Shown here: piece after piece, positions 25,017 to 55,450 of the stretch | Position numbering within the stretch: the stretch's first letter is position 1 | Layout: each line of letters opens with the position of its first letter | From: a virus | Reading direction: 5' to 3' (one strand) | Virus record (IMG/VR): IMGVR_UViG_3300005529_000001 | Location: 144,882-208,881 of that record | Length of the DNA: 64,000 bases | The notes under the pieces: model-generated | The model's database searches: none | The model's input: only the letters and a program-made list of their open reading frames with translations | What the model was told of the DNA's origin: nothing | Program-made: the position numbers and the translations under genes

Positions 25017-25564
25017 CAGTTCTTTTGTGAGCCGGGCTCGTCTTCTGGGTATGTGTTATCAATTGTACCCTCTTGCCAGTGTTCTCGGACAGTCATTGAC
25101 GTGTCTGTAACGATCCACGCGCCAGGCGAGCTTGGAATGAAAACGGCGAGGATGACTTTGTCCCCTGGCTTGAAACGCGTCTTTTTGATGGGCTGGAATC
25201 CGGTGGGATCCATGTCAGCCGCGAGATCAGGGTAGCTGATCATAACGCTTGACCCGGCATCGTAGCTGTCACCAAACGCATGTTCGACTGTCGTTATTGC
25301 GGTACCCTTGATGAGGGGATCGCCGGCGGGCAAGACGATTGGGCACCCGTCAGCTTCACCAGGATCATTTTCAATCTCCTGCTTGTCAGTGATGTGCGTG
25401 CCAAGCAACGTTGCCATCTGCTGGGCGGCAGCATGGCACGCTTGTTCGTTGCCTTTGACAAACCAAGCACAAAGATCACCTTCCCAGTCAAACATGCACG
25501 TCATGAACTGGCCTTTTGCGGCTTCCGCAATCAGAGCACGAAGTTGTCTTAGAGTAGTTTTCAT
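25016..25564 (-). CDS. MKTT-family protein (candidate virion-packaged/ejected protein with CTS-like propeptide)
   Basis: N-terminus MKTTLRQLRALIAEAAKG. Paralogous N-terminus and near-identical upstream region to 25572-25961. Confidence 0.5.
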   Translation of the reverse strand: MKTTLRQLRALIAEAAKGQFMTCMFDWEGDLCAWFVKGNEQACHAAAQQMATLLGTHITDKQEIENDPGEADGCPIVLPAGDPLIKGTAITTVEHAFGDSYDAGSSVMISYPDLAADMDPTGFQPIKKTRFKPGDKVILAVFIPSSPGAWIVTDTSMTVREHWQEGTIDNTYPEDEPGSQKN

Positions 25565-25571: not shown

Positions 25572-25961
25572 TCACATCTCCCACTCGTCGCCCGTCCATT
25601 TCATGTCGCTGCCACCGCCAGCGAGATTCGCGACGGCTTCATCGTCATAGAAGTGAAGAACGTATCCGGGGAAATCGGACAATGCATTTTCATAGTATGG
25701 GCTATCAAAATCACCGAACGCTTGCAACGACCAACGGCACTGATCAGGTGAAAGCAACCCAGGCTCTTGTGGGTCCCAATCTCCCGTCTCTTTGGCGGCT
25801 TCTACGTTATCTTTGTAGAGTTCCAGTGCAGAAGCCCATGCTTCAGGAAAGAACTGCATGACCTGGTCAATTGACAATGGCACGGTATGCTGACCGCTAC
25901 TAATGTCTGGCTTGAGGGCTTCTTGAATCAGCTTCTTGAGCTTACCGATTGTTGTTTTCAT
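25572..25961 (-). CDS. MKTT-family protein (candidate virion-packaged/ejected protein with CTS-like propeptide)
   Basis: N-terminus MKTTIGKLKKLIQEALKPD. GGAG SD. Tandem with 25016-25564. Confidence 0.5.
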   Translation of the reverse strand: MKTTIGKLKKLIQEALKPDISSGQHTVPLSIDQVMQFFPEAWASALELYKDNVEAAKETGDWDPQEPGLLSPDQCRWSLQAFGDFDSPYYENALSDFPGYVLHFYDDEAVANLAGGGSDMKWTGDEWEM

Positions 25962-30286: not shown

Positions 30287-30964
30287 TCACGCCGGCGCGC
30301 CGCCGCCTCCTGGGCCCGCCTCAGCAGAGCCGCTTGCACGAGCAGCGGGCGGTGCTGGGAATTTGTCGTCATCGACTGACTGCCTATCCTGGCCGGGGAC
30401 CATGCCATGATCGTCACGCATGACGTTGTCAAACGCTTGCAGGACCTCGTCGTTGTAGTTCTTCTGCAAGAAACCACGCGCTCGGCGCATCAACGTAGCC
30501 TTGACTTCAAGCAAGCTGTCATAGTTCTCAATGAGCCTGACGACATCATCACAGAACTTGGCGACATCAACGTCTTCCATCGTCAGCTTCCCAGCGTCAT
30601 CGTCACCCATCATGTCGTCAGCACCGGGAGCAGCATCATCAGCGCCCTGGGCATCCTTGTCTCCCTGGCCCGCCTCGATCAGGACTCCCTTGACCAGGTC
30701 ACGCCAGTCCATCGCTTCCATCTGTGCGGCGCTGCCGGGACCCTGGAGCGAGTTGTCTGTCTTCTTGGAATCGGTCTCGTACTGCATCAGGTACTTGTCG
30801 ACCTGCTCATCCAGCGAGTCACCGCTAGCGCCCGTCACGTGTGCCTGGCTGTCATCGGGCGCTTCCTCAGGAGCCTCCTCGAGGACACGAAGGTAAGTGT
30901 CCATCCGACCGCGTTTTGCTTCGGACATGATCTGACGGAGATCACCCATCCTTAATCGCATCAT
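30287..30964 (-). CDS. Acidic protein with CTS-like N-terminus
   Basis: MMRLRMGDLRQIMSEAKRG. Asp-rich, 225 aa. Parallels MMRLTLGQLRNLLSEE (55226-55450). Confidence 0.45.
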   Translation of the reverse strand: MMRLRMGDLRQIMSEAKRGRMDTYLRVLEEAPEEAPDDSQAHVTGASGDSLDEQVDKYLMQYETDSKKTDNSLQGPGSAAQMEAMDWRDLVKGVLIEAGQGDKDAQGADDAAPGADDMMGDDDAGKLTMEDVDVAKFCDDVVRLIENYDSLLEVKATLMRRARGFLQKNYNDEVLQAFDNVMRDDHGMVPGQDRQSVDDDKFPAPPAARASGSAEAGPGGGGAPA

Positions 30965-31719
30965 GAGCCCCTCTTCTGTCCCTGGCCCATCACCTGTGCC
31001 AGCTCCTCAGCCTTCTTGAAACGTTCTTCGATGACATCGAAGTTAAGCTCTTTCATCATCGCAACCAGGTATGACTCCTTGTCGGTCTGGTAATCTTTGA
31101 AGTACGAGTGCTCGTGCATGTCAATGACGACCAACGGGTAGAACCCGAGCATCACGTCTTGTGAGTTGTTGCTGACCATCGTGTTGATGTAGCGTTGGAG
31201 GTACATGTGATAGCCGCAGACAGCCCATCCCTGCCCGCTGCCCATCGCGCAAGCCATGAAGTCTTTCTGCCAGTCGTTGAATGTTCCAAAGTCACGTTCT
31301 AACCTCAGGTACGTCATCGAGTCCATGTAGACTTCGCTGTGAGGATCGAAGCAGTTGGCAAAGTACAGCTCGTGAAGCCACACTGCATTGAGGTTGTATG
31401 TCTCATCCAGCTTCAGGCTACGGTAATCGCTGTGCTTGCTGTCGGCTTGCGCTCGTTCTGCGGTGTCGAGCTCGCTGCTGACGCGGTTCAGCGTCTCGAT
31501 GTGGCCCTTGTAAAGAGCCTCGTGAGCGTCCTTCGTCTTCTGTGACGCAAACTCGGTCACCTGACTGTACTGCTTGGGTTGCGCGACGTACGCCTCGTCA
31601 AGCGGTTCGGGTCCCGGGATCTGCTTCTTCAGCGACTCTTTGATGATGCCAGCGAGGTCAACACCCTCTGCAAGACCCAGCAAGCCGTCACCTGTCTTTC
31701 CGTTCGAGCTCATGGCCAT
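30961..31719 (-). CDS. Fe/Mn superoxide dismutase-like protein with ~45-aa N-terminal extension
   Basis: ERDFGTFNDWQKDF (cf. ERDFGSVDNFKAEF), VIDMHEHSYFKDYQTDKESYL (cf. [20 protein letters not shown]) and AHEALYKGHIETLN (cf. HHTKHHQTYVNN). The four metal-ligand positions are occupied: His, His, Asp, His. Confidence 0.5.
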   Translation of the reverse strand: MAMSSNGKTGDGLLGLAEGVDLAGIIKESLKKQIPGPEPLDEAYVAQPKQYSQVTEFASQKTKDAHEALYKGHIETLNRVSSELDTAERAQADSKHSDYRSLKLDETYNLNAVWLHELYFANCFDPHSEVYMDSMTYLRLERDFGTFNDWQKDFMACAMGSGQGWAVCGYHMYLQRYINTMVSNNSQDVMLGFYPLVVIDMHEHSYFKDYQTDKESYLVAMMKELNFDVIEERFKKAEELAQVMGQGQKRGS

Positions 31720-33244: not shown

Positions 33245-33805
33245 CTATCGCCGGGCCAGAGCTTGGTAGATGGCTTCCTGCAGGGTCAACACCTCGACCC
33301 CAGCGCTTTTCAGGAGATCGATCCCATCAGTGATCCGATACGGGATCTCATAGACGACTCTGGCAATCTCCGCGTTGACGATCAGCTTCGCACACTCCTT
33401 GCACGGGCTGTTCGTCACGTACATGTGCTTCGGTCTGGCAAAGTTGTAGTCGCACTTGACGAGAGCGTTGACCTCAGCGTGGACAGTGCCGCTCTTCCCG
33501 CGTTCGAGCGATTCAACGTGATTGGGACCGCCCTTCCACATCCCGTTGTACCCTACGCTGAGCATCTGCGTGTTGTTCGACGAAACGACGATCGCTCCCA
33601 CTTTCAATGCCGGGTCGATCGAGCGCAAAGCGATTGTCTTTGCGACCTGCATCCAGACTGACGGCCAGGTCGGACGTTCGGGTTCCTTGTCCTCAACGAG
33701 AACAGTCAAGCAGAACTTGCACGTCTGCCCACCGGCATCATTCTCCACCCAATGATGGAAGATGTCTTTGGTGTTTGCTAGACACGCTTCGTTTAGGTTT
33801 CCCAT
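33245..33805 (-). CDS. dCMP deaminase (zinc-dependent cytidine/deoxycytidylate deaminase family) with N-terminal extension
   Basis: HAEVNAL (Zn His/Glu) and SPCKECAKLI (PCxxC). Resembles T4 Cd. Confidence 0.75.
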   Translation of the reverse strand: MGNLNEACLANTKDIFHHWVENDAGGQTCKFCLTVLVEDKEPERPTWPSVWMQVAKTIALRSIDPALKVGAIVVSSNNTQMLSVGYNGMWKGGPNHVESLERGKSGTVHAEVNALVKCDYNFARPKHMYVTNSPCKECAKLIVNAEIARVVYEIPYRITDGIDLLKSAGVEVLTLQEAIYQALARR

Positions 33806-34980
33806 CAAGCCCCCACCATGGATTGGAACAACTCGCTCTCAAGGCGATGGATTTCCTGGCCTAGCGCTTTGCCCGAAAACCCCTGTGCCATCAGGGGCTC
33901 ACCCCTGAAAGGCTCAGAGCCCAGGTACCGCAAGAAAGCATCGAACTCTGCGTTCGAGGGCATCCCGCGAGCACGAACGTACTCAACGTACATCGTGAAG
34001 GCGTCATCTTCTGACATGCCCAGGGCTTTCTCGGCCTTGCGGAGCTTCAGAGCGGTGTCCTTCGTGATGTTACGGAGCCGGAGCAAGAACGTGACTTGCG
34101 CGACCTCGTCAACCGAGTACTTCAGGTGAAGCAGCTTTTTCCCCAACGTCTCAAGGTTCTCATCATCCAAGATGAGAGCTAGCACGACCGGGACGGTGTT
34201 GGAATCGACCCCACGCGTAGACACGAGGTTGTCCAGGTACGTTGACACTTTGAGCCCGGGCAGCACCCGATCCCACAACCCCAACGACGTCATGAGGTTC
34301 ATCAACCGTTGTGGTTTCTCAGCTGCTACGATCGACTTGACAAGCTCGTCCCGGACCCGTTCAAACGAGACGCCATCAAGGTTGTTGTCACGCTGAATGG
34401 CTGCGAACGTTTCTTTGGAGATCTCAAAGCCGAGCTTGACTGCGAACCTGATGGCTCGCAACACCCTGAGCCTGTCTTCGGCAAACCTGTCCTCGGGACG
34501 TCCAACCGTCCTGATGACCTTGTGACGAATGTCATCGAGCCCGCCGACTAGGTCAACGACCTCTTGCGCGGTGATGTCATAGAACAGAGCGTTGATCGTC
34601 AGGTCCCGACGTTGCACGTCTTCCTTGATCGTCGCGAAGCGTACCTGTGGGTGGCGACCCGCGCTCAGGTCCTCACGGAACGTTGCGATCTCGTACTCCT
34701 CGGAAGGAGACCCATCGTGGGTGTACGTCCTCGTTCGGATGACGCCGAAAGCCTTGCCGACTGCATCCGTTAGCCATCGTCCCGTGGTGTGGAGCAAGCG
34801 CTCCACTTGGTCAGGAGTGGCATCAGTTGCGAGGTCGAAATCCTTGGGCTTCTTGCCCATCACCGCGTCACGCACTGCACCACCGACCAGGTGCAGTGCG
34901 TAGCCATTCGTATGAAAGAGCATCGCCAGCGATTTGACATCGCTGTGCAAGTCAATCTTGAGAGGCTGACGGACTACCAT
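33805..34980 (-). CDS. cca: CCA-adding enzyme / poly(A) polymerase-family tRNA nucleotidyltransferase
   Basis: Class II head domain LVGGAVRDAVMGKKPKDFDLATDATP. 391 aa. Confidence 0.7.
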   Translation of the reverse strand: MVVRQPLKIDLHSDVKSLAMLFHTNGYALHLVGGAVRDAVMGKKPKDFDLATDATPDQVERLLHTTGRWLTDAVGKAFGVIRTRTYTHDGSPSEEYEIATFREDLSAGRHPQVRFATIKEDVQRRDLTINALFYDITAQEVVDLVGGLDDIRHKVIRTVGRPEDRFAEDRLRVLRAIRFAVKLGFEISKETFAAIQRDNNLDGVSFERVRDELVKSIVAAEKPQRLMNLMTSLGLWDRVLPGLKVSTYLDNLVSTRGVDSNTVPVVLALILDDENLETLGKKLLHLKYSVDEVAQVTFLLRLRNITKDTALKLRKAEKALGMSEDDAFTMYVEYVRARGMPSNAEFDAFLRYLGSEPFRGEPLMAQGFSGKALGQEIHRLESELFQSMVGA

Positions 34981-35012
34981 GCGGTCATCCTACCATCGTT
35001 GGTGGTTGGTTT

Positions 35013-35594
35013 TCACTCTTTCGCGATGTTCGCTCGTTTGTCAACGGCAAGATGGTGGCGAAAGCAACGCGGCTCATAGAGCTCCGCGCCACCGACCTGG
35101 ATCTCCTCGCCGTCTGTCTGTTTCTTGTGAGTGTAGAAAGCGTCACGCCCACATTCAGTGCAGACCGCTGCACATTTTTCGACATGCGTTGCCCAAGCCA
35201 TCAGCTTCTCGACCTCGTGGAATGGCTTGCCCAGGTATGACAGGTCCAACGTTGAGACCACGACATCGATGCCGAGCTGGTAAAGGTAGATCAGGACGTC
35301 GGCGACGCCCGGGATCATGAACGCTTCGTCAACGGCAACCACCTCGGGCATCTGTTCCGCTTCCGCAAGCGCGCCCAAGATGTCTGACCCCTCCTTGACA
35401 AGGGTAGCATCGTGTTTCCAGCCCGAGTGACTGACAACCTCAGTGTTGCTGTACCTGGCATCGATCGCGGGCTTGAAGACCTGGATTCGCTTGTGTTGGT
35501 ACTTGGCACGCTCAAGAGCGAGCAACAGTTTCGTCGTTTTTGACGAGAACATTGCGCCCGCGAAGACCGTCAGCGTTGGGTTCTGCCCGCTCAT
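35013..35594 (-). CDS. tdk: Thymidine kinase
   Basis: P-loop FAGAMFSSKTTKLL, VDEAFMIPG, C-terminal Zn ribbon CxxC...C. Confidence 0.75.
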   Translation of the reverse strand: MSGQNPTLTVFAGAMFSSKTTKLLLALERAKYQHKRIQVFKPAIDARYSNTEVVSHSGWKHDATLVKEGSDILGALAEAEQMPEVVAVDEAFMIPGVADVLIYLYQLGIDVVVSTLDLSYLGKPFHEVEKLMAWATHVEKCAAVCTECGRDAFYTHKKQTDGEEIQVGGAELYEPRCFRHHLAVDKRANIAKE

Positions 35595-36148
35595 GCGAAC
35601 CTATGTTCCAGGATGACGAAGGGAGCGCGGCACACCGAGTCATACCTTGCTGCAGCCTCAAGGGCTAACGTGATTCGTTTCTTTGGGTCCATTTGCATGT
35701 CTCTTGTCGCGTACATTGCCCCGTTGGCAACTTGCGCGCCCACACCGATGCAACAGTAATCATCCTGAGGACAACCAACATCAAAATCTTCTTCGATGGA
35801 ATAGAGCTTGCCGTTGTATCCCACCAGCAACCCAACCGAGTGAAACTCTTCTTCGTCTTCCCTCTTCAGAGATCCTTTTTCCTTGTGCAACTCTCTGACA
35901 GCATCGATGAAGTTGATGACCATGTAAGCCATGTCATCGTGCTTCTTGGGCTTGTCAGGTGCTTCGAAAGCGTACCGCAACAGCTGTCCCACACGGAAGC
36001 TTCCCGCAAAACCTATGATGAAGTCACCGTTGATGAAGACTTTTTCGTCAGCCCGGCCGAGAACAGAGGTGCCTTTCGTATCGGATGCCAACGAATCAGC
36101 ACCCATATAGATCACGCCGTTCTCGACCAAGCCAACGATACAGGTCAT
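35591..36148 (-). CDS. HslV-like N-terminal-Thr peptidase (proteasome beta-type Ntn hydrolase), copy 1
   Basis: MTCIVGLVENGVIYMGAD, ADEKVFINGDFIIGFAGS and CIGVGAQVANGAMYA align with HslV TTIVSVRRNGHVVIAGD / [20 protein letters not shown] / IAIGSGGPYAQAAARA. Thr follows the initiator Met. Confidence 0.6.
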   Translation of the reverse strand: MTCIVGLVENGVIYMGADSLASDTKGTSVLGRADEKVFINGDFIIGFAGSFRVGQLLRYAFEAPDKPKKHDDMAYMVINFIDAVRELHKEKGSLKREDEEEFHSVGLLVGYNGKLYSIEEDFDVGCPQDDYCCIGVGAQVANGAMYATRDMQMDPKKRITLALEAAARYDSVCRAPFVILEHRFA

Positions 36149-36152
36149 GGAC

Positions 36153-36722
36153 TCAGTTCCGGTTCTTCACCACCAGCGTATCGAACGGTGGAGCACAGCC
36201 TGCGTTCTTGGTAGAAGCTTCGAGTGCCATGAGAACACGCTTCTTGGCGCCGCCCCACATTTTCTTGGTCGCTTCGAACGAACCGAGCGCCAGCTTGCTG
36301 CCGCTGCCGACAGAAGCAAACTTCTCATCGCCTTCGACCAGCTGAAAGTTACCCTCGAGCGTGTAGAGATGGCCACGATAAGCGACCAACATCGCGCCTT
36401 CAAAGCAGATCTCACCGTTACCGCCGAATGGGCTGTTGTCAGGACCCGCTGCGTCGAGCTTCTTGAGGCCCTCGCGGATCGCTGGAACTAGCTCGGTCAC
36501 TAGGAACTGCCTATCATCGCCGCCTGCCTGGATGGGCAGCTCGATGCCATGTTTTAGCGCGTCCATGACCTTGGGCAGGCCGCAGACACCAAAGCCCACA
36601 TCGCCCTTTGCAAAGATCTTGGGCTCCTTGAGCAAGGTCCTATTGAGACCGCCATCCGTGGCCGCCCGATCTCCGCCGAGCCACACCTTGTTCCCATCAA
36701 CCAAACCGACTATGCAGGTCAT
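36153..36722 (-). CDS. HslV-like N-terminal-Thr peptidase, copy 2
   Basis: MTCIVGLVDGNKVWLGGD, KIFAKGDVGFGVCG, GSGSKLALGS. Paralog of 35591-36148, 4 nt upstream. Confidence 0.6.
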   Translation of the reverse strand: MTCIVGLVDGNKVWLGGDRAATDGGLNRTLLKEPKIFAKGDVGFGVCGLPKVMDALKHGIELPIQAGGDDRQFLVTELVPAIREGLKKLDAAGPDNSPFGGNGEICFEGAMLVAYRGHLYTLEGNFQLVEGDEKFASVGSGSKLALGSFEATKKMWGGAKKRVLMALEASTKNAGCAPPFDTLVVKNRN

Positions 36723-36901
36723 GACTTGTTCTCCGAGCTTGACTTCTTGGTGTCCTGTTCACCGGCAACGTACGACGACCAAGCGATCAACGTCATCGCG
36801 TTGAATGCTTCGCCAGTGTAGCCGAGTTTCTTTGCTGCCTTGATCGCTTTCGTGATCGACGAAGCGAGTGTATCACGCCAAACAGTGTTGTCTTCGCTCA
36901 T
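36719..36901 (-). CDS. Hypothetical small protein
   Basis: 60 aa. GGAAGG SD. Overlaps the stop of the upstream gene. Confidence 0.3.
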   Translation of the reverse strand: MSEDNTVWRDTLASSITKAIKAAKKLGYTGEAFNAMTLIAWSSYVAGEQDTKKSSSENKS

Positions 36902-36904
36902 TAG

Positions 36905-37672
36905 TCATCCTTCCTTTGTGTTGTACGGCGAGTCTGGGTAGAGTTCACGGTATTGTGACTTGGATACGGCGATCTCTCCCGTCTTGGTAAAATGGTCTAC
37001 CAAGTAGAAGTGTCGCTCGTAGACGTGGAGACTGCCTGCGCTCCAGTGAATGTCACCCTCAGGCAACTGGAGATCCTTGGCAAGGTTGGCAAGGACGGTA
37101 TACTGCCAGGCTCGATCGTTCTTGTAACCCAGAACCGCGTCATTGGATCGCATCTGGACCACGGCATGAAGAGCACCATCACGGACTAGGTACTGTACCG
37201 CGTTGGTGCACATGAAGTCGCTCCGGCCATCGATGTTGTACTCCTCCCACATCGAGGGACGGGTGTAGATGACAACAGCCCTCCGGCTCTCCGGGTTTTT
37301 CTTGAGCTCGGCCAGCACTTTTGTGTACTGGCCACCGTTCTCTGGGCTGTAGGTCGTCCACCCGTAGTTGCTGTTGATGGTACCGTCCTTAGAAGCGACA
37401 GCTTTCCACACCGTGGGTGCCCCGCCCGGGATGTCATTGACGTTCCGGCTCTGGCTCATGTACCACATCTCCTCGCGGTGGATGTAGTCCCAGTCAACCT
37501 TGCCGAACAGGGCGTCGTCCGAAGCGATGAAGTTAGCCCCAACGATCTCAATCGTCCTCTTGCCAACCAGAGAGGTCATCGACGCTTCCCGGTTGACGCT
37601 AGTGAATTTCTCCTCGGCAAGAAGAGAAGCGAATTGGTCCCTGATCGACTGCGTTGAATTGTAGAGCGTCAT
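36905..37672 (-). CDS. Thymidylate-synthase-family pyrimidine C5-modifying enzyme (divergent; ThyA or dNMP hydroxymethylase-like)
   Basis: FMCTNAVQYLVRDGALHAVVQMRSNDAVLGYKND aligns with ThyA [33 protein letters not shown]: catalytic Cys, RSxD and Asn retained. IHREEMWYM matches IHELLWFL. The folate/N-terminal regions diverge far more than between true ThyAs. Confidence 0.6.
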   Translation of the reverse strand: MTLYNSTQSIRDQFASLLAEEKFTSVNREASMTSLVGKRTIEIVGANFIASDDALFGKVDWDYIHREEMWYMSQSRNVNDIPGGAPTVWKAVASKDGTINSNYGWTTYSPENGGQYTKVLAELKKNPESRRAVVIYTRPSMWEEYNIDGRSDFMCTNAVQYLVRDGALHAVVQMRSNDAVLGYKNDRAWQYTVLANLAKDLQLPEGDIHWSAGSLHVYERHFYLVDHFTKTGEIAVSKSQYRELYPDSPYNTKEG

Positions 37673-38622
37673 TTGTTAAGCTTCATCTTTCCGACCCAAT
37701 CCCAGTTGTCTTCGTACCATTTGACGGTCCGATCCAGACCCTCCCAGAACCTGACCAGTGGGACATATCCTAACAACTGTTGTGCTTTTGTCACGTCGGC
37801 TTGGGTGTGCATGACATCGCCGGCGCGCCAGGGCGCGTTGCAGACCTGAGCACCTGGATAACGCTTGCCCAGCTCGATGATGATGTCACGGTTAGTCGTT
37901 CGGTCTCCACATGCTACGTTGATGCACTCAGCATTGAGCAAACCTGATACGTTTCCAGCCTTGACACACGCATCGACAACGTTGTCAACGTAACACATGT
38001 CGCGGCTCTGGCTGCCGTCGCCGTCGCTACGAAGAGGGATGCCCTTCTTGATCGCTGTCAACCAGGCTGACACCGCGGTTGAATACGGGCTGTCACCCAG
38101 CTGGTTGGGTCCAAAGACATTGAAGAAACGCAAACAAACGCTGTCAAGCTTGTAAAGATCGCGGTACAAGACCAGGTAATCTTCAATGATCGACTTCTGA
38201 AGAGCATATGGTGACTTGGGGTTCTTACGCTCGTTCTCGCTGGTGGGTAGTATGTCAGCCCCACCGTATACCGACGAGCTAGACGCGAAAACGAACCGCT
38301 TGACGTTGTCCCGACAGGCATCCATCAACGCCAACGTCCGGGACACGTTGACGTGGTTGGTTTCTAGCGGGTGCTCGACTGAGTACGACACCCTGGGAAC
38401 AGCCGCCAAGTGAAAGATGACATCGTACCTGCCCTGCTTTATCTCGTGCAATACATCAGCATGAGCAAAATCTTTCGTGATTACCGCCTGGCCATGAGGT
38501 ACAAACTCCAGGTGACCGTTGGACAGATCGTCAACAGTGTCAACATCCCACCCTTCGTCCAAGCAACGCTTGACAAGGTTCGATCCGATGAAGCCCGCGC
38601 CGCCAGTGACAAGGACGTGCAT
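37669..38622 (-). CDS. NAD-dependent nucleotide-sugar 4-epimerase (GalE/WbpP-like extended SDR)
   Basis: VLVTGGAGFIGSNLV Rossmann motif, SSSSVYG, catalytic YALQK. 4-nt overlap (translational coupling) with the TS-family gene. Confidence 0.75.
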   Translation of the reverse strand: MHVLVTGGAGFIGSNLVKRCLDEGWDVDTVDDLSNGHLEFVPHGQAVITKDFAHADVLHEIKQGRYDVIFHLAAVPRVSYSVEHPLETNHVNVSRTLALMDACRDNVKRFVFASSSSVYGGADILPTSENERKNPKSPYALQKSIIEDYLVLYRDLYKLDSVCLRFFNVFGPNQLGDSPYSTAVSAWLTAIKKGIPLRSDGDGSQSRDMCYVDNVVDACVKAGNVSGLLNAECINVACGDRTTNRDIIIELGKRYPGAQVCNAPWRAGDVMHTQADVTKAQQLLGYVPLVRFWEGLDRTVKWYEDNWDWVGKMKLNK

Positions 38623-38655
38623 GAGCGGATCATAACCCGCCCGCCGTCCAAAGTT

Positions 38656-39177
38656 TCAGTACCGCGTGGTGTCGACCCAAGCACCGTCGGCAGGAACCCA
38701 CTGCCACGGTGGCATGTCTTCCTCTTCGCTTGGTTCACCCTCGGTTGCCATCAGAGCCCAAGGAACACCATCAACAACAATCGATGGGTCATTTTCGTCG
38801 ACCGCTTCAAGGACGTAAAAGTACGTGAGATCAGCAGGAGCATCAGCAAGAGCAACAACGGCTTCAGGCACCATCTTTTCTAGCTCTTGAAGGGTGAATG
38901 CCTGCATGTGATGCAAGCCCTCAGACAACACCTTCATGGCATCGTTGACGTAATAGTCGAGGATGTCGGCTTCGACCTTGTTGGATCCTGCTTCCTGGAC
39001 TGCGCTGCTCCAGCTCGTGAAGGTAGTGTCCCACCCATCACTGTCATCTGTGAACCGGCGACCGATCTTAGCCTCGACAAGACGTCGAAACTTCCGATGA
39101 TCATCAATGATCATTTCTTCATTCAGTGCGCGTTCGATCTCCTCACGCACCAGGGCCCTTAGCGACTTCTCATCCAT
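38656..39177 (-). CDS. Acidic protein with CTS-like N-terminus
   Basis: Start set at the internal ATG (MDEKSLRALVREEIERALNE) right after the upstream stop, with CCTACTTAC 5 nt upstream. The upstream ORF extension looks non-coding. Confidence 0.4.
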   Translation of the reverse strand: MDEKSLRALVREEIERALNEEMIIDDHRKFRRLVEAKIGRRFTDDSDGWDTTFTSWSSAVQEAGSNKVEADILDYYVNDAMKVLSEGLHHMQAFTLQELEKMVPEAVVALADAPADLTYFYVLEAVDENDPSIVVDGVPWALMATEGEPSEEEDMPPWQWVPADGAWVDTTRY

Positions 39178-39178
39178 G

Positions 39179-40612
39179 TCAGGTAAGTAGGCCCATCCTG
39201 CGCATGGCGGCGGGAGTTGTTGCCTCGTAGGAGCACCGCTTCCTGATGACTTCCAACAGCTTCTGGTTGATGTTGTGACGGGCATTCTCCCGTGATGGAC
39301 ACTGAACACGCCCAATCGACCTGTCAAGCAAATCAACCAAATTGATGAGATTTACTTCACCCAGCACGTATTGGCTCACCCCAGCCTCCTCAGCCAGGCT
39401 CGAATACTCGTAGTTGTCGAGCCACAGTGGCATGCATCCCAACTCGACGCATTCTCGAGCAGCTGTCCCGCCATACGGATCCTTGTTATAGAGGCCCAGA
39501 GCGATGTGGGAGTTCCGTGCCACGTACTTGTACTCGTCACGGTTGAAAGTGTCATCCGTCAGCTTGACGTAGCCGTTGGCCCCACATTTCTCTTCGAGCT
39601 CAGCGTTAGAGAACTTGAAATTTGGATTGCCACACACTACGACGTAGTCCCGTCGCCGTTGTCGCAGCTGGGGAAGGATATCGAACATGAACTTCATACC
39701 GTTGGTATAGTCGCCGCTCGACGGAGAGATCCGATTGGGGAAGAACAGGACGCACTTTCCCTCCGTCTTGGCTTTCCATTCCGCCGCAGAAAAACGGACG
39801 TTCTTCATGTCAGGTTCCAGCAACGTCTCCGCCGAGGAGTACCCGTCGTCCCAGGGCATTGACTTGGCACGAACGTCATCAACCACGTCCTGGGTGAACC
39901 ACTTGCCCATGCTGTCAAAGAACTGCAACATCGCTGACTCGCACTGCCAGAAGTTGTAGTCGGCCCGGAGTGCGGCTTCACACTGGCCAAGCCACAGTGA
40001 ACACTCTTGCGGGAACTTGGGGACTTCAGGCACATCTACAAAGTGGGAGTGGACGTAGAACTTGGGTTGGTAACCACCGTTGATGTGAAACATCGCCTTG
40101 AAGTTACGAAGGTGCATCGGATCATTGATGTAGACCGCGTCGTACTTCAACTCTGGGTGCTTTTTGTGATTGTGGATCCCGATGCTCAGGGAGACCTTGT
40201 TGAAGTTGAGATCGTACCTGGTCGCCAGCGCGTTTGCCATTACTTCGTGCTGGATATAGTTGAGCCGGCCCCGGTCTTCTTTGGTCGGATCGACATAACC
40301 ATAGAGGCAATGCCAGTCAAGATCCGGGTTGACGATCCACGGATAATCAACGCACTGGCTAGCGTTTTCATAGTAGGTATCGAACAGCTTCGGTCCCATC
40401 ACGTCGATCTGGAGATCTGGGTTGCGGCGCAACATCTCTCGCACCCGCCCCATCACCATCTGCCACCCGCTGTCGCAAGCCAGGTCAAACTTGTTGTGTT
40501 TGTAGTTGATGTTACTCAGCTGAGTCTGGACTAGCAGGCGCATGCTTGAACCTTTCCCTGATGTCGGCGTGGTGTTCATCGCAGTGTGCACGTGCCTGCT
40601 CAAAAAGCGCAA
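39179..40612 (-). CDS. Putative glycosyltransferase (GT-B-like C-terminal domain)
   Basis: DPYGGTAARECVELGCMPLWL resembles the GT4 Ex7E motif (EGFGLxxLEAMAxGxPVI). 477 aa. The true start may be the internal Met at 40543 or 40579. Confidence 0.35.
   Translation of the reverse strand: MRFLSRHVHTAMNTTPTSGKGSSMRLLVQTQLSNINYKHNKFDLACDSGWQMVMGRVREMLRRNPDLQIDVMGPKLFDTYYENASQCVDYPWIVNPDLDWHCLYGYVDPTKEDRGRLNYIQHEVMANALATRYDLNFNKVSLSIGIHNHKKHPELKYDAVYINDPMHLRNFKAMFHINGGYQPKFYVHSHFVDVPEVPKFPQECSLWLGQCEAALRADYNFWQCESAMLQFFDSMGKWFTQDVVDDVRAKSMPWDDGYSSAETLLEPDMKNVRFSAAEWKAKTEGKCVLFFPNRISPSSGDYTNGMKFMFDILPQLRQRRRDYVVVCGNPNFKFSNAELEEKCGANGYVKLTDDTFNRDEYKYVARNSHIALGLYNKDPYGGTAARECVELGCMPLWLDNYEYSSLAEEAGVSQYVLGEVNLINLVDLLDRSIGRVQCPSRENARHNINQKLLEVIRKRCSYEATTPAAMRRMGLLT
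39183..39191 (-). promoter_or_regulatory. CCTACTTAC promoter-like motif upstream of 38656-39177
   Basis: Minus-sense gcCTACTTACctgacATG. Confidence 0.3.
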
Positions 40613-40922
40613 CTAGGATGCGACGCAGTTTCCTGTTGTCGTCGAAAGTCAGGTCTTCAATGATTTCCCTGGCGCAGTGCTCAGCCCACTTCTCCTTGTT
40701 GAACGTGACCTCACCGTACTGATCATCGATCACCCATGACCCGGGCGCTGCGGCTTTTGACCTGAACTTGGTCTTGAAGGTGATGTGACCGCTCGACCAA
40801 TCCTCGAAGCCAGGAACGCACTCCTTTCGAGCGTCGAGCATGTGGAACTCGACGCCCATGATGAAAGCGCTCTTGCTCATGTCGTGCTTCGCTTCAGGTT
40901 CTGTCTCAGCCACTCGGTACAC
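40512..40922 (-). CDS. Hypothetical protein
   Basis: 136-aa ORF. Overlaps both neighbours. Confidence 0.3.
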   Translation of the reverse strand: MYRVAETEPEAKHDMSKSAFIMGVEFHMLDARKECVPGFEDWSSGHITFKTKFRSKAAAPGSWVIDDQYGEVTFNKEKWAEHCAREIIEDLTFDDNRKLRRILVALFEQARAHCDEHHADIRERFKHAPASPDSAE

Positions 40923-41440
40923 TCCTTACCATGTGCGATGCTCTCGAGAACGTCGTCTTGGGCACGGTGCGCTTGGGCTTTCTTGAGCTGCGGCATTCCC
41001 ATCGACCGGCAGTACAGTTTCAGCACCGAGACGTCATAGCACCTGACATCGTTCTCACGGAACTCGAACCGCGTTGCTACCCTAGGCATGTGGACTTTCA
41101 TGAACTTGTAATCAAAACGGATGCTAGATCCTCCCATGACGGGTCGTTCGTCTGGGTCACCAACAAGCGGGACAACACGAAGGAGGTCTTCCTCAACGTC
41201 CCGTACCTGTTTCGCAAGCCACGACGAACAGTCAGCAAGCAGACCGTTCTTGGTGTGCATCTCCAAGACGATCGGTCTCAGATCAGATGGAATCCACGGG
41301 GCCAACGGCATCACTGCATGGTACACGGGCCTGGCGTTGAAGGGGTCGTTGAAGTCCGCGACGGACACCGCGAGCTCCAACGGCTTGTCTTTGTCAGGAT
41401 CGATGCCCGTTGACTCAAAGTCAAGCCAGAAGATCTTCAT
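40877..41440 (-). CDS. DEDD-family 3'-5' exonuclease (DnaQ/oligoribonuclease-like)
   Basis: Exo I motif IFWLDFESTGIDPDKD, with later conserved acidic/His positions (HxxxD near HRAQDDV). Confidence 0.6.
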   Translation of the reverse strand: MKIFWLDFESTGIDPDKDKPLELAVSVADFNDPFNARPVYHAVMPLAPWIPSDLRPIVLEMHTKNGLLADCSSWLAKQVRDVEEDLLRVVPLVGDPDERPVMGGSSIRFDYKFMKVHMPRVATRFEFRENDVRCYDVSVLKLYCRSMGMPQLKKAQAHRAQDDVLESIAHGKECTEWLRQNLKRSTT

Positions 41441-41721
41441 GCGTTTCTCAGCGCAGCTGTCAGCAAACCGATCAATGGTCGCAACGTTTGTCCCGTACGC
41501 GCTGCCTCTTTCCCACCGCGACTGAGCAGCGCATCTAAGGATAACGCCATTGCTCGAGCTTCATCGTGGTCGAGCTCAATGGTGACTGTCTTCGCCAACC
41601 GCTTGGGATCAGTCTTAGCGTTCTCCCAGATGCCCAAGCAAGTGGGACACCCATCGGGATACTTCGCTGTCTTCATCGGCATCCGACGTGCCTGGTACTT
41701 CGGGTGTTCTTTGCACTTCAT
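41437..41721 (-). CDS. Hypothetical Zn-ribbon-like protein
   Basis: 94 aa. CKEH...CPTC Cys pairs. Confidence 0.35.
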   Translation of the reverse strand: MKCKEHPKYQARRMPMKTAKYPDGCPTCLGIWENAKTDPKRLAKTVTIELDHDEARAMALSLDALLSRGGKEAARTGQTLRPLIGLLTAALRNA

Positions 41722-42272
41722 CAGACCACCCTGTAGATGAAATAATGAACGTCATCGAGCTCACGTTGGAGGTTCTCATCGTCAACGTTGAGCTTCAGGA
41801 GCTTGCATTTGGTCCATGACGCAAAGTCCATGTACGCATCATGGATCTGCTGGAGCGTCTCCCCCTTGACGGTTGGGTCAAGATCATCAACGATCTTTGA
41901 GTAATCTGTACGGCAAGCAAGGATGATGCGAGCGTCGAGCTTGGCCCACTCTTCGTCGAGATGCCTCAGCATCCTGTCGTCAGTCACCCGGCCGAACGTC
42001 TTGCTGTAAGCATACTCGCATGGGTAACCACGATCGAAGATGACAGACTGGCCTGTTTGTTTGAGCAGGTCCATAACCCGGGGGTCAGCATACCGCAGCT
42101 GTTCTAGGAACAGCTCACGTTTCGAGACCCGGCTTGACAAGAAAGCATCGTGCTCGCTCGACGCCTTGAAGTAAGGGATGTCGGTGACCCTGGAGAGGGC
42201 CTTGCTTATCTCTGTTTTCCCAGACATGTCGGGCCCAACGAAGAAAACGATGCGTTGCCGTCCCACGTACAT
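41721..42272 (-). CDS. P-loop nucleotide/polynucleotide kinase-like protein
   Basis: Walker A VGPDMSGKTEISKAL near the N-terminus. 183 aa, the size of dNMP/thymidylate or polynucleotide kinase domains. Confidence 0.5.
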   Translation of the reverse strand: MYVGRQRIVFFVGPDMSGKTEISKALSRVTDIPYFKASSEHDAFLSSRVSKRELFLEQLRYADPRVMDLLKQTGQSVIFDRGYPCEYAYSKTFGRVTDDRMLRHLDEEWAKLDARIILACRTDYSKIVDDLDPTVKGETLQQIHDAYMDFASWTKCKLLKLNVDDENLQRELDDVHYFIYRVV

Positions 42273-42318: not shown

Positions 42319-45300
42319 ATGAGGGTCAGTCTGGGCGTCCTGAGGGACTACGTCTCCAACCTGTTGGTTGAGAATCGCATCGATGATGCACGTGAAAAAT
42401 ACCCCGACATCGAAGAGGATGTCTTCCAAAACCTCGTCGCGAACCAACCCGGCGGGTCGAACAACAAGTACCTGATGTGGTCAGCCAAGCAGGTTGACGA
42501 CGAGGTAATGCCTGAAGAGGTCATCATGGCCATCAGGTTGTTTCACGACAACGTTCACCGTCTCAAGCAAAAGGACATCAACCAGTACGAGAGCGTCGAA
42601 GCCCTCGACACCGCCATTGACGAGCTCCAGAAGAACAAGAGCAAGAGCCAAGAAGCCAAGCAAGCGAAGGCTGACACCCAGGTCATCTACAACGACGACA
42701 ACTGGCTCGTTGTCCGCCCGTACACTGCTGACGCATCATGCAAGTACGGCGCAGGTTCAAAGTGGTGCATCTCGGCCACTGCATCTCGCAACTACTTCAA
42801 CTCGTACTCAGAGACCAACAACAAGTTCTACTTTGTCATCGACAAGAAATCAACTAGCAACACGCCCAACTCAAAGTTCGCTATCGCTATCGTTGCAGCG
42901 GGCTTGGCTGCCGCCGGTCGCGAGATCCAGGTCTACAACGCCTCCGATAGCTTGGTGTCTCTGAACACCGTAGCTAGCGCCGTCGGTAGCAAGTGGCCTG
43001 AAATCTGGGAAAAGATCCAAGCTCACGTCGCAGCAAACCCGAAGACCCGTGAGGTCGAAGACGCTGAGAGAGCGACTGAAGAGCATGTTGCTGCGTTGTT
43101 GAAAGGCGAGAAGCTTAGCGACCAAGCGATGAAGAAGGTCGCCAAGAGCGGCAAGCTATCAAACCAAGTCATCAAGAAGATCCTCGGACGTTACGAGAAC
43201 TACACGGGACCCACCGATTACCGTGATGAACGACAGGACATCATGAACTCGTTGTCCAGCCGCGCCAGTGAGATGGAATCTGAAGGGGCGATGGCTGTAT
43301 TGAAGTGGATCTCAGAGAACAGCGCCAACAGCTATTGGCGTACTTCCTACCTCGAACGCATGTTGGCAGCCGCTCCCTTCAAACCAGAAGACTTCCGTGA
43401 GATCGCTAAGACTAACGATGAAGAGATCCTCGCTAACATCTTTAGTAACCCAGCAACTCCTGATGACGTAAAGCGAGTGATCTCTGATGCTGCAATGCGT
43501 TTCGTGTCGGAGTCAGCTACCCGAAAAGTTTACTGGGAGCTCATCAAGTCGGGTGCCATCACCAAAGAGCAGATGGCACACGCGATGGAGATGGATAACA
43601 AGAGGGGCTCATACAGGTACCTGACAAGCCAGATCCTCAACCATCCTGAAGACGTTCGCATGGAACCCGAGTTGGTCAAGATGTTAACCATCAACAACGC
43701 AGGAGAGTTCAAAAACCTGTTGCGGATCCCGAACGTCCCACACGATTTTGCTGTCAAGATCCTCAGCAAGCTGATGAGCAGCGAGAGCCTGAAGAAATAC
43801 GACATGCTCGAGTTGCTCCGGACAACACCGTTGGGTCCGAAGCAGATCGAGAAGCTGTGGGCTGACTGGCCCCAAGCAACCGTCAGGACAGCGTTGCTAC
43901 AAAACCCTGGGATCGGTGAGGGGAACGCTAACAAGTTCGCCAAAAGCAAGAACAGCGCGTACCGTTTTTCGGTTGCACACAACACCATCACTCCAGTTGA
44001 TGCGCTCAACACACTCTCCAAAGACGAGTCAGTCTCAACCAGGTCAGCTGTCGCTGCTAACCCCAAGACATCACCCGAGACGCTGTACACGCTAGCAAAG
44101 GACCAAGCTGTTGCGGTCAGAGCGAGCGTCGCTAGCAACGCATCGTCACCGACCAACCTTGTACGTGCTCTGAAACGAGACTCAGACGACTTTGTCAGGA
44201 AAGCTGCTCGGAAGACGCTCAAAGCTTTGGACGTGACAGAAGCTTACATCGGGATGGCGATGGGCATGCGTGGTTTGCTCGTTGAAGAGCTGACCGATGA
44301 TGATGTCACGCCTGACATCATGAACCCAAGCTGGCGTGACATCATTCCTAGCACCATTGACAAGGAAGAGTTTGTCGCGGTCTTTCTGTTGCAGAACAAT
44401 GGTAGCGCAACGCGAGAAGAGATCACCAAAGCGTACAAGGATTGGATGGGCAGCGCTGGTGGAGCGGGCGAGCTCTGGAAGACAAACAAGTGGAGTGACC
44501 AGATCATCCGCGGCATCATGTCTCAGGGTAAGGGCTGGTTCTGGTCGCCTCCAGGCATCAACAAAGGTGCTCTGTTTCGTCTGACGCCAGCAGGTGCGAG
44601 CGCAGCTTTGGACATTATCAGGAAACTCGCTCACCTCACGAACCTATCTTCTCCCGTACAGATCACGTCTGCCAAGGCTCGACCAGGAAAGACGTACTTT
44701 GTCAAGGGCGCTGAAGAAGCCCTTGACGTCACGGGCATGGAGAAGGGTGACCTTGAGGTCGAAGAAGTTGCAGCAAACTACAACAACGAGCCCATCAAGA
44801 CTGATGGGAAATACACGAAGCTGTCACCAAACCGCAGCTGGCGACAGAAGCGCCGCCAACGCAGCGTGAAGATGTTCAAGTACACCTCCCCAACAGGGGA
44901 AGTGAAGTACACTCGAGAGCTTCCCAAGGTCTCCGTCCCCAACAATGCCAAGGTACAGTTCATCAAGACATTCCACGGCCAGGCGACGAATGACAGGTAT
45001 TCCACCAGCGAACCCAACCGAGCGATCGTCAAGTACAACGACAAGTACCTGCTTGTCAAGTTCCCGATGTGGGCAAAAGAGGGTGGTGCTGTTCCAGACA
45101 ACTCCGAAAAGGAGACAAACGTACCGCCGCCCGTCAGGAAGTCTCCTCCACCACGTGAGCTGACGGGCGAACCCGCCGCTGCACCAGCACGAACTGGTGG
45201 GGGTGAAGCTCCCGCAGCTCCCCGTGGACCCAAAGTCGGTTACAAGATCTACGGCCGCCACCGTGGGGCTCCCGCTCACACGCGTCTGAAGGGCCAAGCT

Positions 45301-45432
45301 TACGCTGCACCTACAGACACCCAGTTCTCACCCGGAGAGCAAGCGACCATCCAGGTCGGTGCTGATGGCAAGCTGAAGGTCAAGAAAGTGGCTGGCGATC
45401 ACGAACAGACGTGGGACCCCGTCGAGGGTTGA
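42319..45432 (+). CDS. Large (1037 aa) protein with HEAT/LRV-type repeats; possible virion/ejected protein
   Basis: Clean 3.1-kb plus-strand ORF. Repeats of type VSTRSAVAANPKTSPETLYTLAKDQAVAVRASVASNAS (leucine-rich-repeat-variant-like). N-terminus MRVSLGVLRDYVSNLLVEN is CTS-like. ATACTTAG promoter-like motif upstream. Confidence 0.55.
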   Translation: MRVSLGVLRDYVSNLLVENRIDDAREKYPDIEEDVFQNLVANQPGGSNNKYLMWSAKQVDDEVMPEEVIMAIRLFHDNVHRLKQKDINQYESVEALDTAIDELQKNKSKSQEAKQAKADTQVIYNDDNWLVVRPYTADASCKYGAGSKWCISATASRNYFNSYSETNNKFYFVIDKKSTSNTPNSKFAIAIVAAGLAAAGREIQVYNASDSLVSLNTVASAVGSKWPEIWEKIQAHVAANPKTREVEDAERATEEHVAALLKGEKLSDQAMKKVAKSGKLSNQVIKKILGRYENYTGPTDYRDERQDIMNSLSSRASEMESEGAMAVLKWISENSANSYWRTSYLERMLAAAPFKPEDFREIAKTNDEEILANIFSNPATPDDVKRVISDAAMRFVSESATRKVYWELIKSGAITKEQMAHAMEMDNKRGSYRYLTSQILNHPEDVRMEPELVKMLTINNAGEFKNLLRIPNVPHDFAVKILSKLMSSESLKKYDMLELLRTTPLGPKQIEKLWADWPQATVRTALLQNPGIGEGNANKFAKSKNSAYRFSVAHNTITPVDALNTLSKDESVSTRSAVAANPKTSPETLYTLAKDQAVAVRASVASNASSPTNLVRALKRDSDDFVRKAARKTLKALDVTEAYIGMAMGMRGLLVEELTDDDVTPDIMNPSWRDIIPSTIDKEEFVAVFLLQNNGSATREEITKAYKDWMGSAGGAGELWKTNKWSDQIIRGIMSQGKGWFWSPPGINKGALFRLTPAGASAALDIIRKLAHLTNLSSPVQITSAKARPGKTYFVKGAEEALDVTGMEKGDLEVEEVAANYNNEPIKTDGKYTKLSPNRSWRQKRRQRSVKMFKYTSPTGEVKYTRELPKVSVPNNAKVQFIKTFHGQATNDRYSTSEPNRAIVKYNDKYLLVKFPMWAKEGGAVPDNSEKETNVPPPVRKSPPPRELTGEPAAAPARTGGGEAPAAPRGPKVGYKIYGRHRGAPAHTRLKGQAYAAPTDTQFSPGEQATIQVGADGKLKVKKVAGDHEQTWDPVEG

Positions 45433-46153: not shown

Positions 46154-46365
46154 TCACCAGGCCGGCAATACGATGGGTGCTCAGGATGGCGCCGGTCCAT
46201 CCCGTGCTCGACGCAAAATAATTCATGACAAAGTTTGCACTCATCACCGTAAGTGTGATGGAGGTTATGATCGTTGGGCGTGTTTCGCAGCGGCATCTCA
46301 CATTGGGGACACTTGTACGTGGACGGACTAGATTGCGGAACGATTATCGGTGGCACCCACATCAC
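46147..46365 (-). CDS. Zn-ribbon protein
   Basis: CPQCE...CKLCHELFCVEHG. Overlaps the DnaE start by 4 nt, so probably co-translated. Confidence 0.4.
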   Translation of the reverse strand: MMWVPPIIVPQSSPSTYKCPQCEMPLRNTPNDHNLHHTYGDECKLCHELFCVEHGMDRRHPEHPSYCRPGEW

Positions 46366-53687: not shown

Positions 53688-53689
53688 CC

Positions 53690-55225: not shown

Positions 55226-55450
55226 TCAGGGGCGTCCCCTCTTCATCGGTCGAGACAGTCCCATCTTCTCAAGGTACGAGCTGATCTGCTTCTTGACATC
55301 GTTGGGCACCATGACGCTTTCTTTCTGGTGCGCAGGATCGTCTTCGAGCAGCTCGCTATATGTCTCGTCAGGCCGGGAGCCACCCCAACAATCGGGTTCG
55401 ATCTCCTCAGATAACAGGTTCCGTAGCTGGCCCAGGGTTAAGCGCATCAA
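55226..55450 (-). CDS. Small protein with CTS-like N-terminus
   Basis: MMRLTLGQLRNLLSEEIEPD. 74 aa. Confidence 0.4.
   Translation of the reverse strand: MMRLTLGQLRNLLSEEIEPDCWGGSRPDETYSELLEDDPAHQKESVMVPNDVKKQISSYLEKMGLSRPMKRGRP

Follow-up and report, generated by a model that had tools for sequence, protein, structure and literature searches.

Does a block of genes in a large uncultured phage encode the enzymes for hypermodified DNA and, if so, which base would be made? The block lies at positions 33,245 to 42,272 of the stretch analysed here, termed the window, which comprises 64,000 nucleotides (positions 144,882 to 208,881 of the IMG/VR virus record IMGVR_UViG_3300005529_000001). An earlier reading of the sequence (the original prediction) had listed a divergent homologue of thymidylate synthase (TS), a nucleotide-sugar 4-epimerase, a glycosyltransferase (GT), a nucleotide kinase, a dCMP deaminase and a thymidine kinase in this block, plus two genes for UDP-sugar synthesis elsewhere in the window, and had proposed that together they yield a 5-hydroxymethylpyrimidine carrying a pentose. 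As judged from Pfam, PHROG and PDB matches, all eight genes are present on the minus strand, with coordinates essentially as proposed (Table 1), and the candidate pathway proved largely right in outline. On balance, we favour the view that the block forms the nucleotide-level core of a pathway of cytosine hypermodification in the style of T4, in which 5-hydroxymethylcytosine (5hmC) would be made and then glycosylated. Glycosylation of hydroxymethylcytosine is the standard example of how phages protect their DNA from restriction enzymes and CRISPR, and the glycosylated base is so far chemically known from few lineages.

The thymidylate synthase homologue

Compared with the sequences of the T4 dCMP hydroxymethylase structures (PDB 1b49/1b5e), the TS homologue gives an E-value of 3.5e-74, whereas the best ThyA match (1b02) reaches 9.3e-15, a difference of about 60 orders of magnitude in favour of gp42. 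Its nearest relatives in cultured phages, found by tblastn, are the gp42 proteins of the Straboviridae (52-53% identity). Identity to T4 gp42 itself amounts to 51-53% and to RB69 gp48 to 25-27%.

The active site was then read in the numbering of E. coli ThyA. In this numbering the exchange N177D confers cytosine specificity, and an acidic residue in place of L143, which admits water, goes along with the transfer of a hydroxymethyl instead of a methyl group (PMC13326640). The exchange D169N, in turn, is the mark of the flavin-dependent 5-hydroxy-dCMP synthases of RB69, DLP3 and other phages, and every tested enzyme of this type has Asn at position 169 (PMC13326640). Our alignment returned the published residues for both controls, namely D143/D169/D177 for T4 gp42 and E143/N169/D177 for RB69 gp48. 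In the window protein, column 143 (E. coli L143) is Asp, and so is column 177 (E. coli N177, T4 D179), where 'YKNDRAWQ' aligns with T4 'FRNDYAWQ'. Column 169 has kept its Asp, and the signature of the 5-hydroxy-dCMP synthases is absent. The catalytic Cys (E. coli C146, T4 C148) is aligned within 'SDFMCTN'. Thus, of two residues that the original prediction had regarded as conserved, the Cys is indeed kept, whereas the Asn is not, the base-specificity residue being Asp. Its more general claim, that the protein has diverged from ThyA in the way hydroxymethylases have, is supported by both the E-values and the residue signature, and the comparison with the ThyA and gp42 families, residues included, favours the gp42 type.

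The combination of D143, D169 and D177 with the low identity to RB69 gp48 indicates that the protein is of the hydroxymethylase type, and neither a ThyA nor a 5-hydroxylase. Strong homology therefore identifies the TS homologue as a T4 gp42-type dCMP hydroxymethylase, predicted to make 5-hydroxymethyl-dCMP, and the phage very probably makes 5hmC. Of all the findings on the block, this identification is the best supported.

Less than 10 kb past the high-coordinate end of the window lie genes for ThyX, a canonical dTMP kinase, an MT-A70 methyltransferase, an NTP pyrophosphatase and a PNKP-like kinase/HAD protein. Since ThyX and the dTMP kinase are encoded on the same contig, dTMP synthesis is covered independently of the TS homologue. 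The NTP pyrophosphatase, about 6.4 kb past the window edge, is a gp56/MazG-like all-alpha protein of 135 amino acids (PF08761, 2e-6; phrog_12184, 1.6e-15) whose C-terminus resembles that of the T4 gp56 dCTPase, which makes it a candidate dCTPase.

The glycosyltransferase candidate, the kinase and their conserved order

The proposed GT gene is present, but its start at 40612 had to be corrected to 40543, the start common to all homologues, which gives a protein of 454 amino acids. This protein has no match in Pfam (E<=0.01), PHROG or NCBIfam, lacks the sequence signatures of Pfam Glycos_transf_1 and Glyco_trans_4, and among PDB sequences finds nothing at E<=1 except one spurious reductase. More than 350 homologues were found in metagenomes, many of them on contigs of 100-370 kb. 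The family was, however, not found by tblastn in 50,697 records of cultured phages (INPHARED), nor in 185,579 GTDB genomes, each representing a bacterial or archaeal species, and it appears to be confined to viruses.

Structure prediction, on the other hand, was informative. An AlphaFold2 model built with 40 homologues (predicted local distance difference test, pLDDT, 92.9; predicted template modelling score 0.90) matched 398 PDB entries in Foldseek at E<=1e-3, and the 50 matches listed are almost all GT-B enzymes (probability 1.0). The top solved neighbours among the matches listed are MshA (3c4q; E 3.4e-11, template modelling score 0.62-0.70), glycogen synthases, OtsA and BshA; 6d9t and PimA (2gej) are further neighbours among them. 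The best structural matches in BFVD are phage GTs, with a protein of Arthrobacter phage Kitkat at the top and others from the T4-like phages KARL-1, Muldoon and SSE1 and from Bacillus phage SP-15; they also include a cyanophage protein annotated as 'DNA alpha-GT'. Reading of the alignment showed an invariant R363-E364 after a Gly-rich loop, and the canonical EX7E motif was not found. Isoelectric points, considered as a proxy for DNA binding, were uninformative (median of the family 5.9, T4 beta-GT 9.0, RB69 gp46:47 5.2). Thus, as the original prediction had suspected from sequence, the modelled fold is GT-B, and we confidently predict that the open reading frame (ORF) encodes a glycosyltransferase of this fold. 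Fold, context and comparative genomics together lead us to think it somewhat probable that this enzyme adds a sugar to 5hmC in DNA.

The second enzyme of interest is the P-loop kinase, which the original prediction had compared to T4 gp1. It is indeed a nucleotide kinase of 183 amino acids with a thymidylate kinase (TMK)-like fold (AlphaFold2 pLDDT 82.8), and its top Foldseek matches are TMKs (2yoh) and YorR of the SPbeta prophage (3kb2), with deoxynucleoside kinases and NDUFA10 of complex I also listed. The analogy to gp1 did not hold: there is no PDB sequence match to T4 gp1, and gp1 (1dek/1del) is not among the top 50 Foldseek matches. Homology to RB69 gp45 is weak but reproducible (BLASTP E 1e-5; hhalign probability 79%, E 1.6e-5). 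Since the genome has a separate canonical TMK, the simplest explanation for a second nucleotide kinase next to the GT is a 5hm-dCMP kinase, and we predict that it phosphorylates 5hm-dCMP.

We compared the block with six loci reached through three further metagenome proteins and with 32 IMG/VR loci retrieved by a profile of the GT (33-67% identity). Window proteins were located in these loci by tblastn, and co-occurrence was scored in windows of about 20 kb. The order kinase, GT, 4-epimerase and TS homologue is kept in about 30 divergent loci of metagenomic jumbo phages, and this recurrence argues against a chance arrangement. The kinase lies upstream of the GT in all 32 IMG/VR loci, at a distance of 0.5-8.5 kb (mostly <4 kb). 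The epimerase is present in 30 of the 32 and adjoins the hydroxymethylase in most. A TS homologue, followed by thymidine kinase and dCMP deaminase, occurs in every one of the 30 loci that cover the region, and the gene for the DnaE-type replicase is conserved between the UDP-glucuronate decarboxylase (UDP-xylose synthase, UXS) and the kinase/GT genes.

The slot of the TS homologue is occupied by three lineages: the T4 type in 16 loci, a long MilA-like type in 11 and a third type in 3. A representative of the MilA-like type (locus L024) matches the CMP hydroxymethylase MilA (PDB 5b6d) with an E-value of 1e-42. All three lineages carry D143/D169/D177; none is ThyA-like and none has D169N. The slot was thus replaced at least twice, each time by a cytosine hydroxymethylase. 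Such non-orthologous swaps, with GT, epimerase and kinase left in place, are evidence beyond inherited synteny that the neighbours need 5hmC.

One relative, L057 (IMGVR_UViG_3300035670_013237), lacks GT and epimerase at this site and encodes in their place, immediately upstream of kinase and gp42-type gene, a protein of 347 amino acids (15672-16715). The protein matches Glyco_trans_1_2 weakly (3e-4), and a different DNA glycosyltransferase may thus have been exchanged into the slot. In pairwise comparison it also weakly resembled the C-terminal domain of T4 beta-GT (E 8e-5), but this resemblance was lost in the PDB-wide search, and we regard it as a hint only.

The ORFs inserted between GT and TS homologue in the relatives include no sugar enzymes; they encode helicase, ATP-grasp and DUF7487 proteins as well as unknowns. 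The dnaE gene of relatives is split by intein-like sequences (Intein_splicing) or flanked by genes for GIY-YIG homing endonucleases (L004/L005:1-3824 and L002:352-861), and in other relatives DUF7487 proteins lie in the interval between GT and TS homologue. Mobile elements have thus repeatedly hit this replication module.

Identity of the sugar and rival readings

The pathway that we propose would begin with the gp56/MazG-like pyrophosphatase, which would supply dCMP. The gp42-type enzyme is predicted, from homology and its active-site signature, to convert dCMP to 5-hydroxymethyl-dCMP, which the TMK-like kinase would phosphorylate; host nucleoside diphosphate kinase would then give 5hm-dCTP, and the DnaE polymerase of the phage would have to accept and incorporate it. 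After replication, the GT would move a sugar from a UDP-sugar onto the hydroxymethyl group. The donor would be prepared by the epimerase, in this lineage probably from UDP-xylose that UXS would make from UDP-glucuronate, and UDP-L-arabinose or UDP-xylose as donor would result in pentosyl-5hmC, which is the weakest step of the scheme. In parallel, dCMP deaminase, ThyX, thymidine kinase and TMK would keep the supply of dTTP apart from the 5hmC pathway.

Three enzymes bear on the sugar. The epimerase gene is translationally coupled to that of the hydroxymethylase, and the predicted overlap of its stop with the start of the TS gene was found as a 4-nt ATGA. The motifs of the epimerase are intact ('GGAGFIGS' for GxxGxxG, 'ASSSSVYG' with the Ser, 'PYALQK' for Tyr-x3-Lys), and its NCBIfam equivalog scores are all far under the cut-offs. 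UXS, also predicted originally, is similar to human UXS1 from end to end (E 5e-87, 295 bits), the next PDB family following at 1e-29 and 107 bits, and the blocks STSEVYGDP, YDEGKR and RIFNTYGP are invariant in the copies of the clade; NCBIfam has no UXS-specific model. In at least 25 loci of the clade, the most divergent ones included, the UXS gene is found a short distance upstream of dnaE, and it is no one-off acquisition. Finally, the predicted UDP-sugar pyrophosphorylase was recovered as a UDPGP-family member with weak PDB matches to UDP-glucose pyrophosphorylases; it may supply UDP-glucose or another UDP-sugar, and its tie to the module is a possible one. 4-Epimerisation of UDP-xylose gives UDP-L-arabinose, a route known in plants and rhizobia. 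A pentose, either xylose or L-arabinose, is therefore possible as the sugar, yet somewhat doubtful, and in claiming it the original prediction reached beyond the evidence. More tentatively still, an uncultured clade of jumbo phages of 300-370 kb from soil and freshwater might replace cytosine with 5-(pentosyloxymethyl)cytosine, that is xylosyl- or L-arabinosyl-5hmC, by means of the route through UXS and 4-epimerase and the virus-only GT-B enzyme.

Several points weigh against glycosylated 5hmC in general or against the pentose in particular. The modification of the DNA is a prediction from the genes. The usual acceptors of GT-B enzymes are small molecules, lipids or glycans. In the PDB search, the GT showed no homology in sequence to the T4 alpha- and beta-GTs (CAZy GT72/GT63), and hhalign of its family against RB69 gp46:47 found none either. 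Within a phage clade whose genomes are collinear, synteny says little about functional linkage, and L057 has UXS but neither this GT nor the epimerase at the site. UXS also occurs in about 55 unrelated viral contigs in which no hydroxymethylase or GT is nearby. The best PDB matches of the epimerase are UDP-N-acetylhexosamine (UDP-HexNAc) 4-epimerases (6wjb, 1e-51; 6dnt, WbgU, WbpP, PelX and the M. ruminantium enzyme). Lastly, no UDP-glucose dehydrogenase (UGD) was found in the part inspected, about 84 kb of the 369-kb genome made up of the window and about 20 kb of flanking sequence; within the window, the Pfam search revealed no dCTPase, UGD or further GTs.

Some of these points fit a different sugar. 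The 5hmC could carry a hexose or an N-acetylhexosamine, such as Gal or GalNAc made from host UDP-Glc or UDP-GlcNAc by the 4-epimerase, while UXS feeds something else, and we consider this a tentative possibility. Besides the solved relatives of the epimerase and the lack of a UGD in the inspected region, it has in its favour a small Thr that motif alignment places at the gatekeeper position, which is Tyr in E. coli GalE. Moreover, epimerase-dependent transfer of hexose, HexNAc and hexuronic acid to 5hmC has a precedent (bioRxiv 10.1101/2023.12.21.572611). However, UXS is a conserved gene of the clade near the module, no other enzyme that would use UDP-xylose is apparent in the region, and the pocket motif GDVMHT, kept across the clade, is unlike the GD[VI]RHS of UDP-HexNAc 4-epimerases.

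It is also conceivable, if unlikely, that the DNA contains bare 5hmC and that the GT, epimerase, UXS and UDPGP-family enzyme serve the glycosylation of virion proteins or the remodelling of host envelope or exopolysaccharide. That viruses often carry UXS in settings where a hydroxymethylase is lacking would agree with this, as would the small-molecule and glycan substrates of the closest solved folds of the GT, its lack of a sequence tie to known DNA GTs and the retention of UXS in L057; jumbo phages with polysaccharide-type GT clusters are known (PMC7824862). The setting of the genes argues otherwise. The GT lies within an array for replication and nucleotide metabolism, downstream of a nucleotide kinase in 32 of 32 loci, and the epimerase adjoins the hydroxymethylase in most and is translationally coupled to it in the window. 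Replacements in the TS slot always brought in a cytosine hydroxymethylase, the GT family was not found in the cellular genomes of GTDB, and Pfam and PHROG detected no other envelope or virion glycan genes in the block. That the TS homologue is instead an ordinary thymidylate synthase, as the original prediction had offered as an alternative, or an RB69-type 5-hydroxy-dCMP synthase is very improbable, for although it belongs to PF00303, some databases label its relatives 'thymidylate synthase' and RB69-like clusters share the kinase/GT/TS architecture, the gp42 match far exceeds that to ThyA, L143 and N177 are both replaced by Asp, D169 is kept, RB69 gp48 is distant and the genome has a separate ThyX.

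The favoured pathway, with 5hmC made and then glycosylated, can be set against four known systems. With T4 it shares the orthologous hydroxymethylase with its identical active-site signature, a gp56-like NTP pyrophosphatase, dCMP deaminase and thymidine kinase, a GT-B transferase near the hydroxymethylase and, as proposed here, modification of the nucleotide before and addition of the sugar after replication. In contrast to T4, the GT is larger and has only the GT-B fold in common with the T4 alpha- and beta-GTs, and the kinase is TMK-like where T4 has gp1. Furthermore, dTMP would be made by ThyX instead of Td, the replicase is of the DnaE type instead of family B, and 4-epimerase, UXS and UDPGP are encoded by the phage, whereas T4 relies on the UDP-glucose of its host.

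The original prediction had also drawn an analogy to arabinosyl-hydroxymethylcytosine in RB69. This analogy is outdated, since RB69 DNA is now reported to contain arabinosyl-5-hydroxycytosine, made via a D169N TS homologue (PMC13326640). The experimentally studied clusters of RB69, DLP3 and RL38J1 nevertheless encode a trio of TMK-like kinase, MshA-like GT-B and TS homologue (PMC13326640), and the same trio is found in the window. Not only is 3c4q the top structural match of both the window GT and RB69 gp46:47 (arabinosyltransferase 1), but YorR (3kb2) is a top match of both the window kinase and the DLP3 cluster kinase (PMC13326640). With its TMK/YorR-like fold, a length of about 180 amino acids, its position near GT and TS homologue and its weak homology to RB69 gp45, the window kinase fits the type of RB69 gp45 and DLP3 gp78, and UDP-sugar synthesis is encoded by the phage in these systems, too. 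The difference lies in residue 169, which is Asn in the flavin-dependent 5-hydroxylases and Asp in the hydroxymethylase-type protein of the window, and in the sugar route, which in the RB69 type leads from ribulose 5-phosphate through D-arabinofuranose-1-phosphate to UDP-arabinofuranose and here would lead from UDP-glucuronate to UDP-xylose and then possibly to UDP-L-arabinose.

A third system comprises the methyltransferase/5mYOX(TET)/GT clusters, in which phage GTs were shown experimentally to add sugar to 5hmC only if the partner epimerase was expressed along with them (Pyle et al., bioRxiv 10.1101/2023.12.21.572611; Cell Rep 2024). That study likewise surveyed metagenomic phage contigs, and its pairing of a 5hmC GT with a donor epimerase resembles the arrangement seen here. 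However, 5hmC arises there after replication, by methylation and oxidation, whereas here it would be made before replication via the TS homologue. In addition, the epimerase-dependent GTs of that study belong to subclass II and are not GT-B, all GT-B enzymes there being subclass III, and no UXS or pentose route is described. Finally, relatives of the window phage carry in the same slot, with the same D143/D177, a long TS homologue that resembles MilA, the CMP 5-hydroxymethylase of the mildiomycin pathway. The window enzyme, in contrast, is of the T4 type, and MilA uses CMP for an antibiotic, not for DNA precursors.

If the favoured pathway is correct, pre-replicative synthesis of 5hmC would extend to a large uncultured clade of jumbo phages with a DnaE polymerase, and a new GT family would join the candidate DNA glycosyltransferases. 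The route through UXS and 4-epimerase, never tied to DNA modification, would then point to a possible new pentosyl-5hmC base. Hypermodified DNA of this kind may be under-represented or mis-called in metagenomic sequencing, and the enzymes of the module could serve 5hmC labelling. That three TS lineages occupy one slot while the hydroxymethylase signature is kept suggests a simple comparative rule for finding hypermodification modules in metagenomes.

Genome context and other genes of the window

The window stems from the genome of a large uncultured phage with about 55% G+C and with genes almost entirely on the minus strand. The GT candidate was found on the ENA metagenome contig ERZ27279688 k141_1055159 of 369,506 bp. 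Three loci mapped from this contig to the window showed that the window crosses the contig ends, with the junction near window position 13222 and an offset of exactly 141 bp. This offset equals the k-mer size of the assembler, which means that the assembly closed into a circle of about 369,365 bp; the genome is probably complete. Megablast of the 33-42 kb block found no match in the 50,697 phage records, and the best tblastn identity of DnaE, the Pol III alpha replicase, in the same set is <=30%; there is thus no cultured relative from which annotation could be transferred. A scan of the block for promoters and terminators gave counts equal to shuffled expectation.

Table 1. Genes discussed in the text. 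Coordinates refer to the window unless a locus is named.
Feature	Coordinates	Strand	Match or remark
dCMP hydroxymethylase, T4 gp42-type TS-family enzyme (predicted)	36905-37672	minus	PF00303 E 6e-21; PDB 1b49/1b5e
Extended short-chain dehydrogenase/reductase nucleotide-sugar 4-epimerase	37669-38622	minus	PF01370 E 5e-52; predicted supplier of the UDP-sugar epimer for the GT
GT-B fold glycosyltransferase, unclassified virus-only family	39179-40543	minus	AlphaFold2 + Foldseek; predicted 5hmC-DNA GT
Thymidylate-kinase-like P-loop nucleotide kinase	41721-42272	minus	phrog_761 'thymidylate kinase' 7e-9; predicted 5hm-dCMP kinase
dCMP deaminase	33245-33805	minus	PF00383 3e-19; phrog_174 9e-42; dUMP supply for ThyX; T4 cd counterpart
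Thymidine kinase	35013-35594	minus	PF00265 E 2.3e-39
UDP-glucuronate decarboxylase (UXS)	50809-51807	minus	human UXS1, full length
UDPGP-family UDP-sugar pyrophosphorylase	2074-3147	minus	PF01704 E 5.7e-22, above cut-off
DnaE-type DNA polymerase III alpha	46362-50171	minus	PHP, DNA_pol3_alpha, finger and HHH_6 domains; context gene
ThyX	L044: 1121-2011
Canonical dTMP kinase	L044: 2046-2663
MT-A70 methyltransferase	L044: 2660-3277
NTP pyrophosphatase	L044: 3574-3981		PF08761; phrog_12184
PNKP-like kinase/HAD protein	L044: 7226-8215
HslV/Ntn-hydrolase-like tandem paralogues	35591-36148, 36153-36722	minus	both start MTCIVGL
tRNA nucleotidyltransferase	33805-34980
RNA ligase	63148-63951
HhH-GPD glycosylase-like protein	1211-1642	minus
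Trypsin-like protease	52-945
Fpg/Nei-family glycosylase	L045: 13289-14101		just outside the window
HNH-domain protein	56008-56538		assigned via the gene table
Proteins with shared N-terminal motif	25016-25564, 25572-25961, 55447-55824, 55226-55450, 54009-55193, 30287-30964, 15238-15510, 17235-18323, 6184-6501	minus
Proteins with shared N-terminal motif	53642-54004, 42319-45432	plus
Auxiliary genes	30961-31719, 56606-56992, 5412-5975, 18339-18800, 56989-57960	minus

Other genes of the block stand outside the proposed pathway, and these encode a tRNA nucleotidyltransferase, two HslV-like proteins, a DEDD exonuclease and small unknown ORFs. The two HslV-like genes are tandem paralogues located between hydroxymethylase and thymidine kinase, and most relatives have kept the pair at that position inside the nucleotide-metabolism array. 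The tRNA nucleotidyltransferase, the RNA ligase and the PNKP-like protein encoded outside the window suggest an RNA-repair set.

Also present are the HhH-GPD gene, the two N6_N4 methyltransferases and the HNH domain that the original prediction had named as fitting non-canonical DNA. The HhH-GPD gene lies about 1.4 kb from the gene for an Fpg/Nei-family glycosylase, and a gene for a trypsin-like protease separates the two. Two base-excision glycosylases in one phage are unusual; they could serve the handling of modified bases or an attack on host DNA.

At least ten otherwise unrelated proteins share the N-terminal motif M-(K/R)-T-T-x-G-x-L-(R/K)-x-L-(I/L)-x-E-A, for example MKTTLRQLRALIAEA and MKTTIGKLKKLIQEAL. 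A loose core of this motif is found in 14 of 95 N-termini, compared to 3% of internal windows, and a few of the 14 look like chance matches. The motif resembles the capsid-targeting sequence of T4 internal proteins (MKTYQEFIAE), which is cut by the prohead protease, and the proteins that carry it may be packaged in the capsid and ejected. Moreover, the window encodes a set of auxiliary proteins, namely a protein with the C-terminal domain of Fe/Mn-superoxide dismutases, an Fe-S cluster biosynthesis protein, two NUDIX hydrolases and an LD-carboxypeptidase. Finally, plastocyanin-like, EamA transporter, HIT, pterin-4a-carbinolamine dehydratase and CN-hydrolase domains are among the Pfam domains detected in the ORFs of the window.

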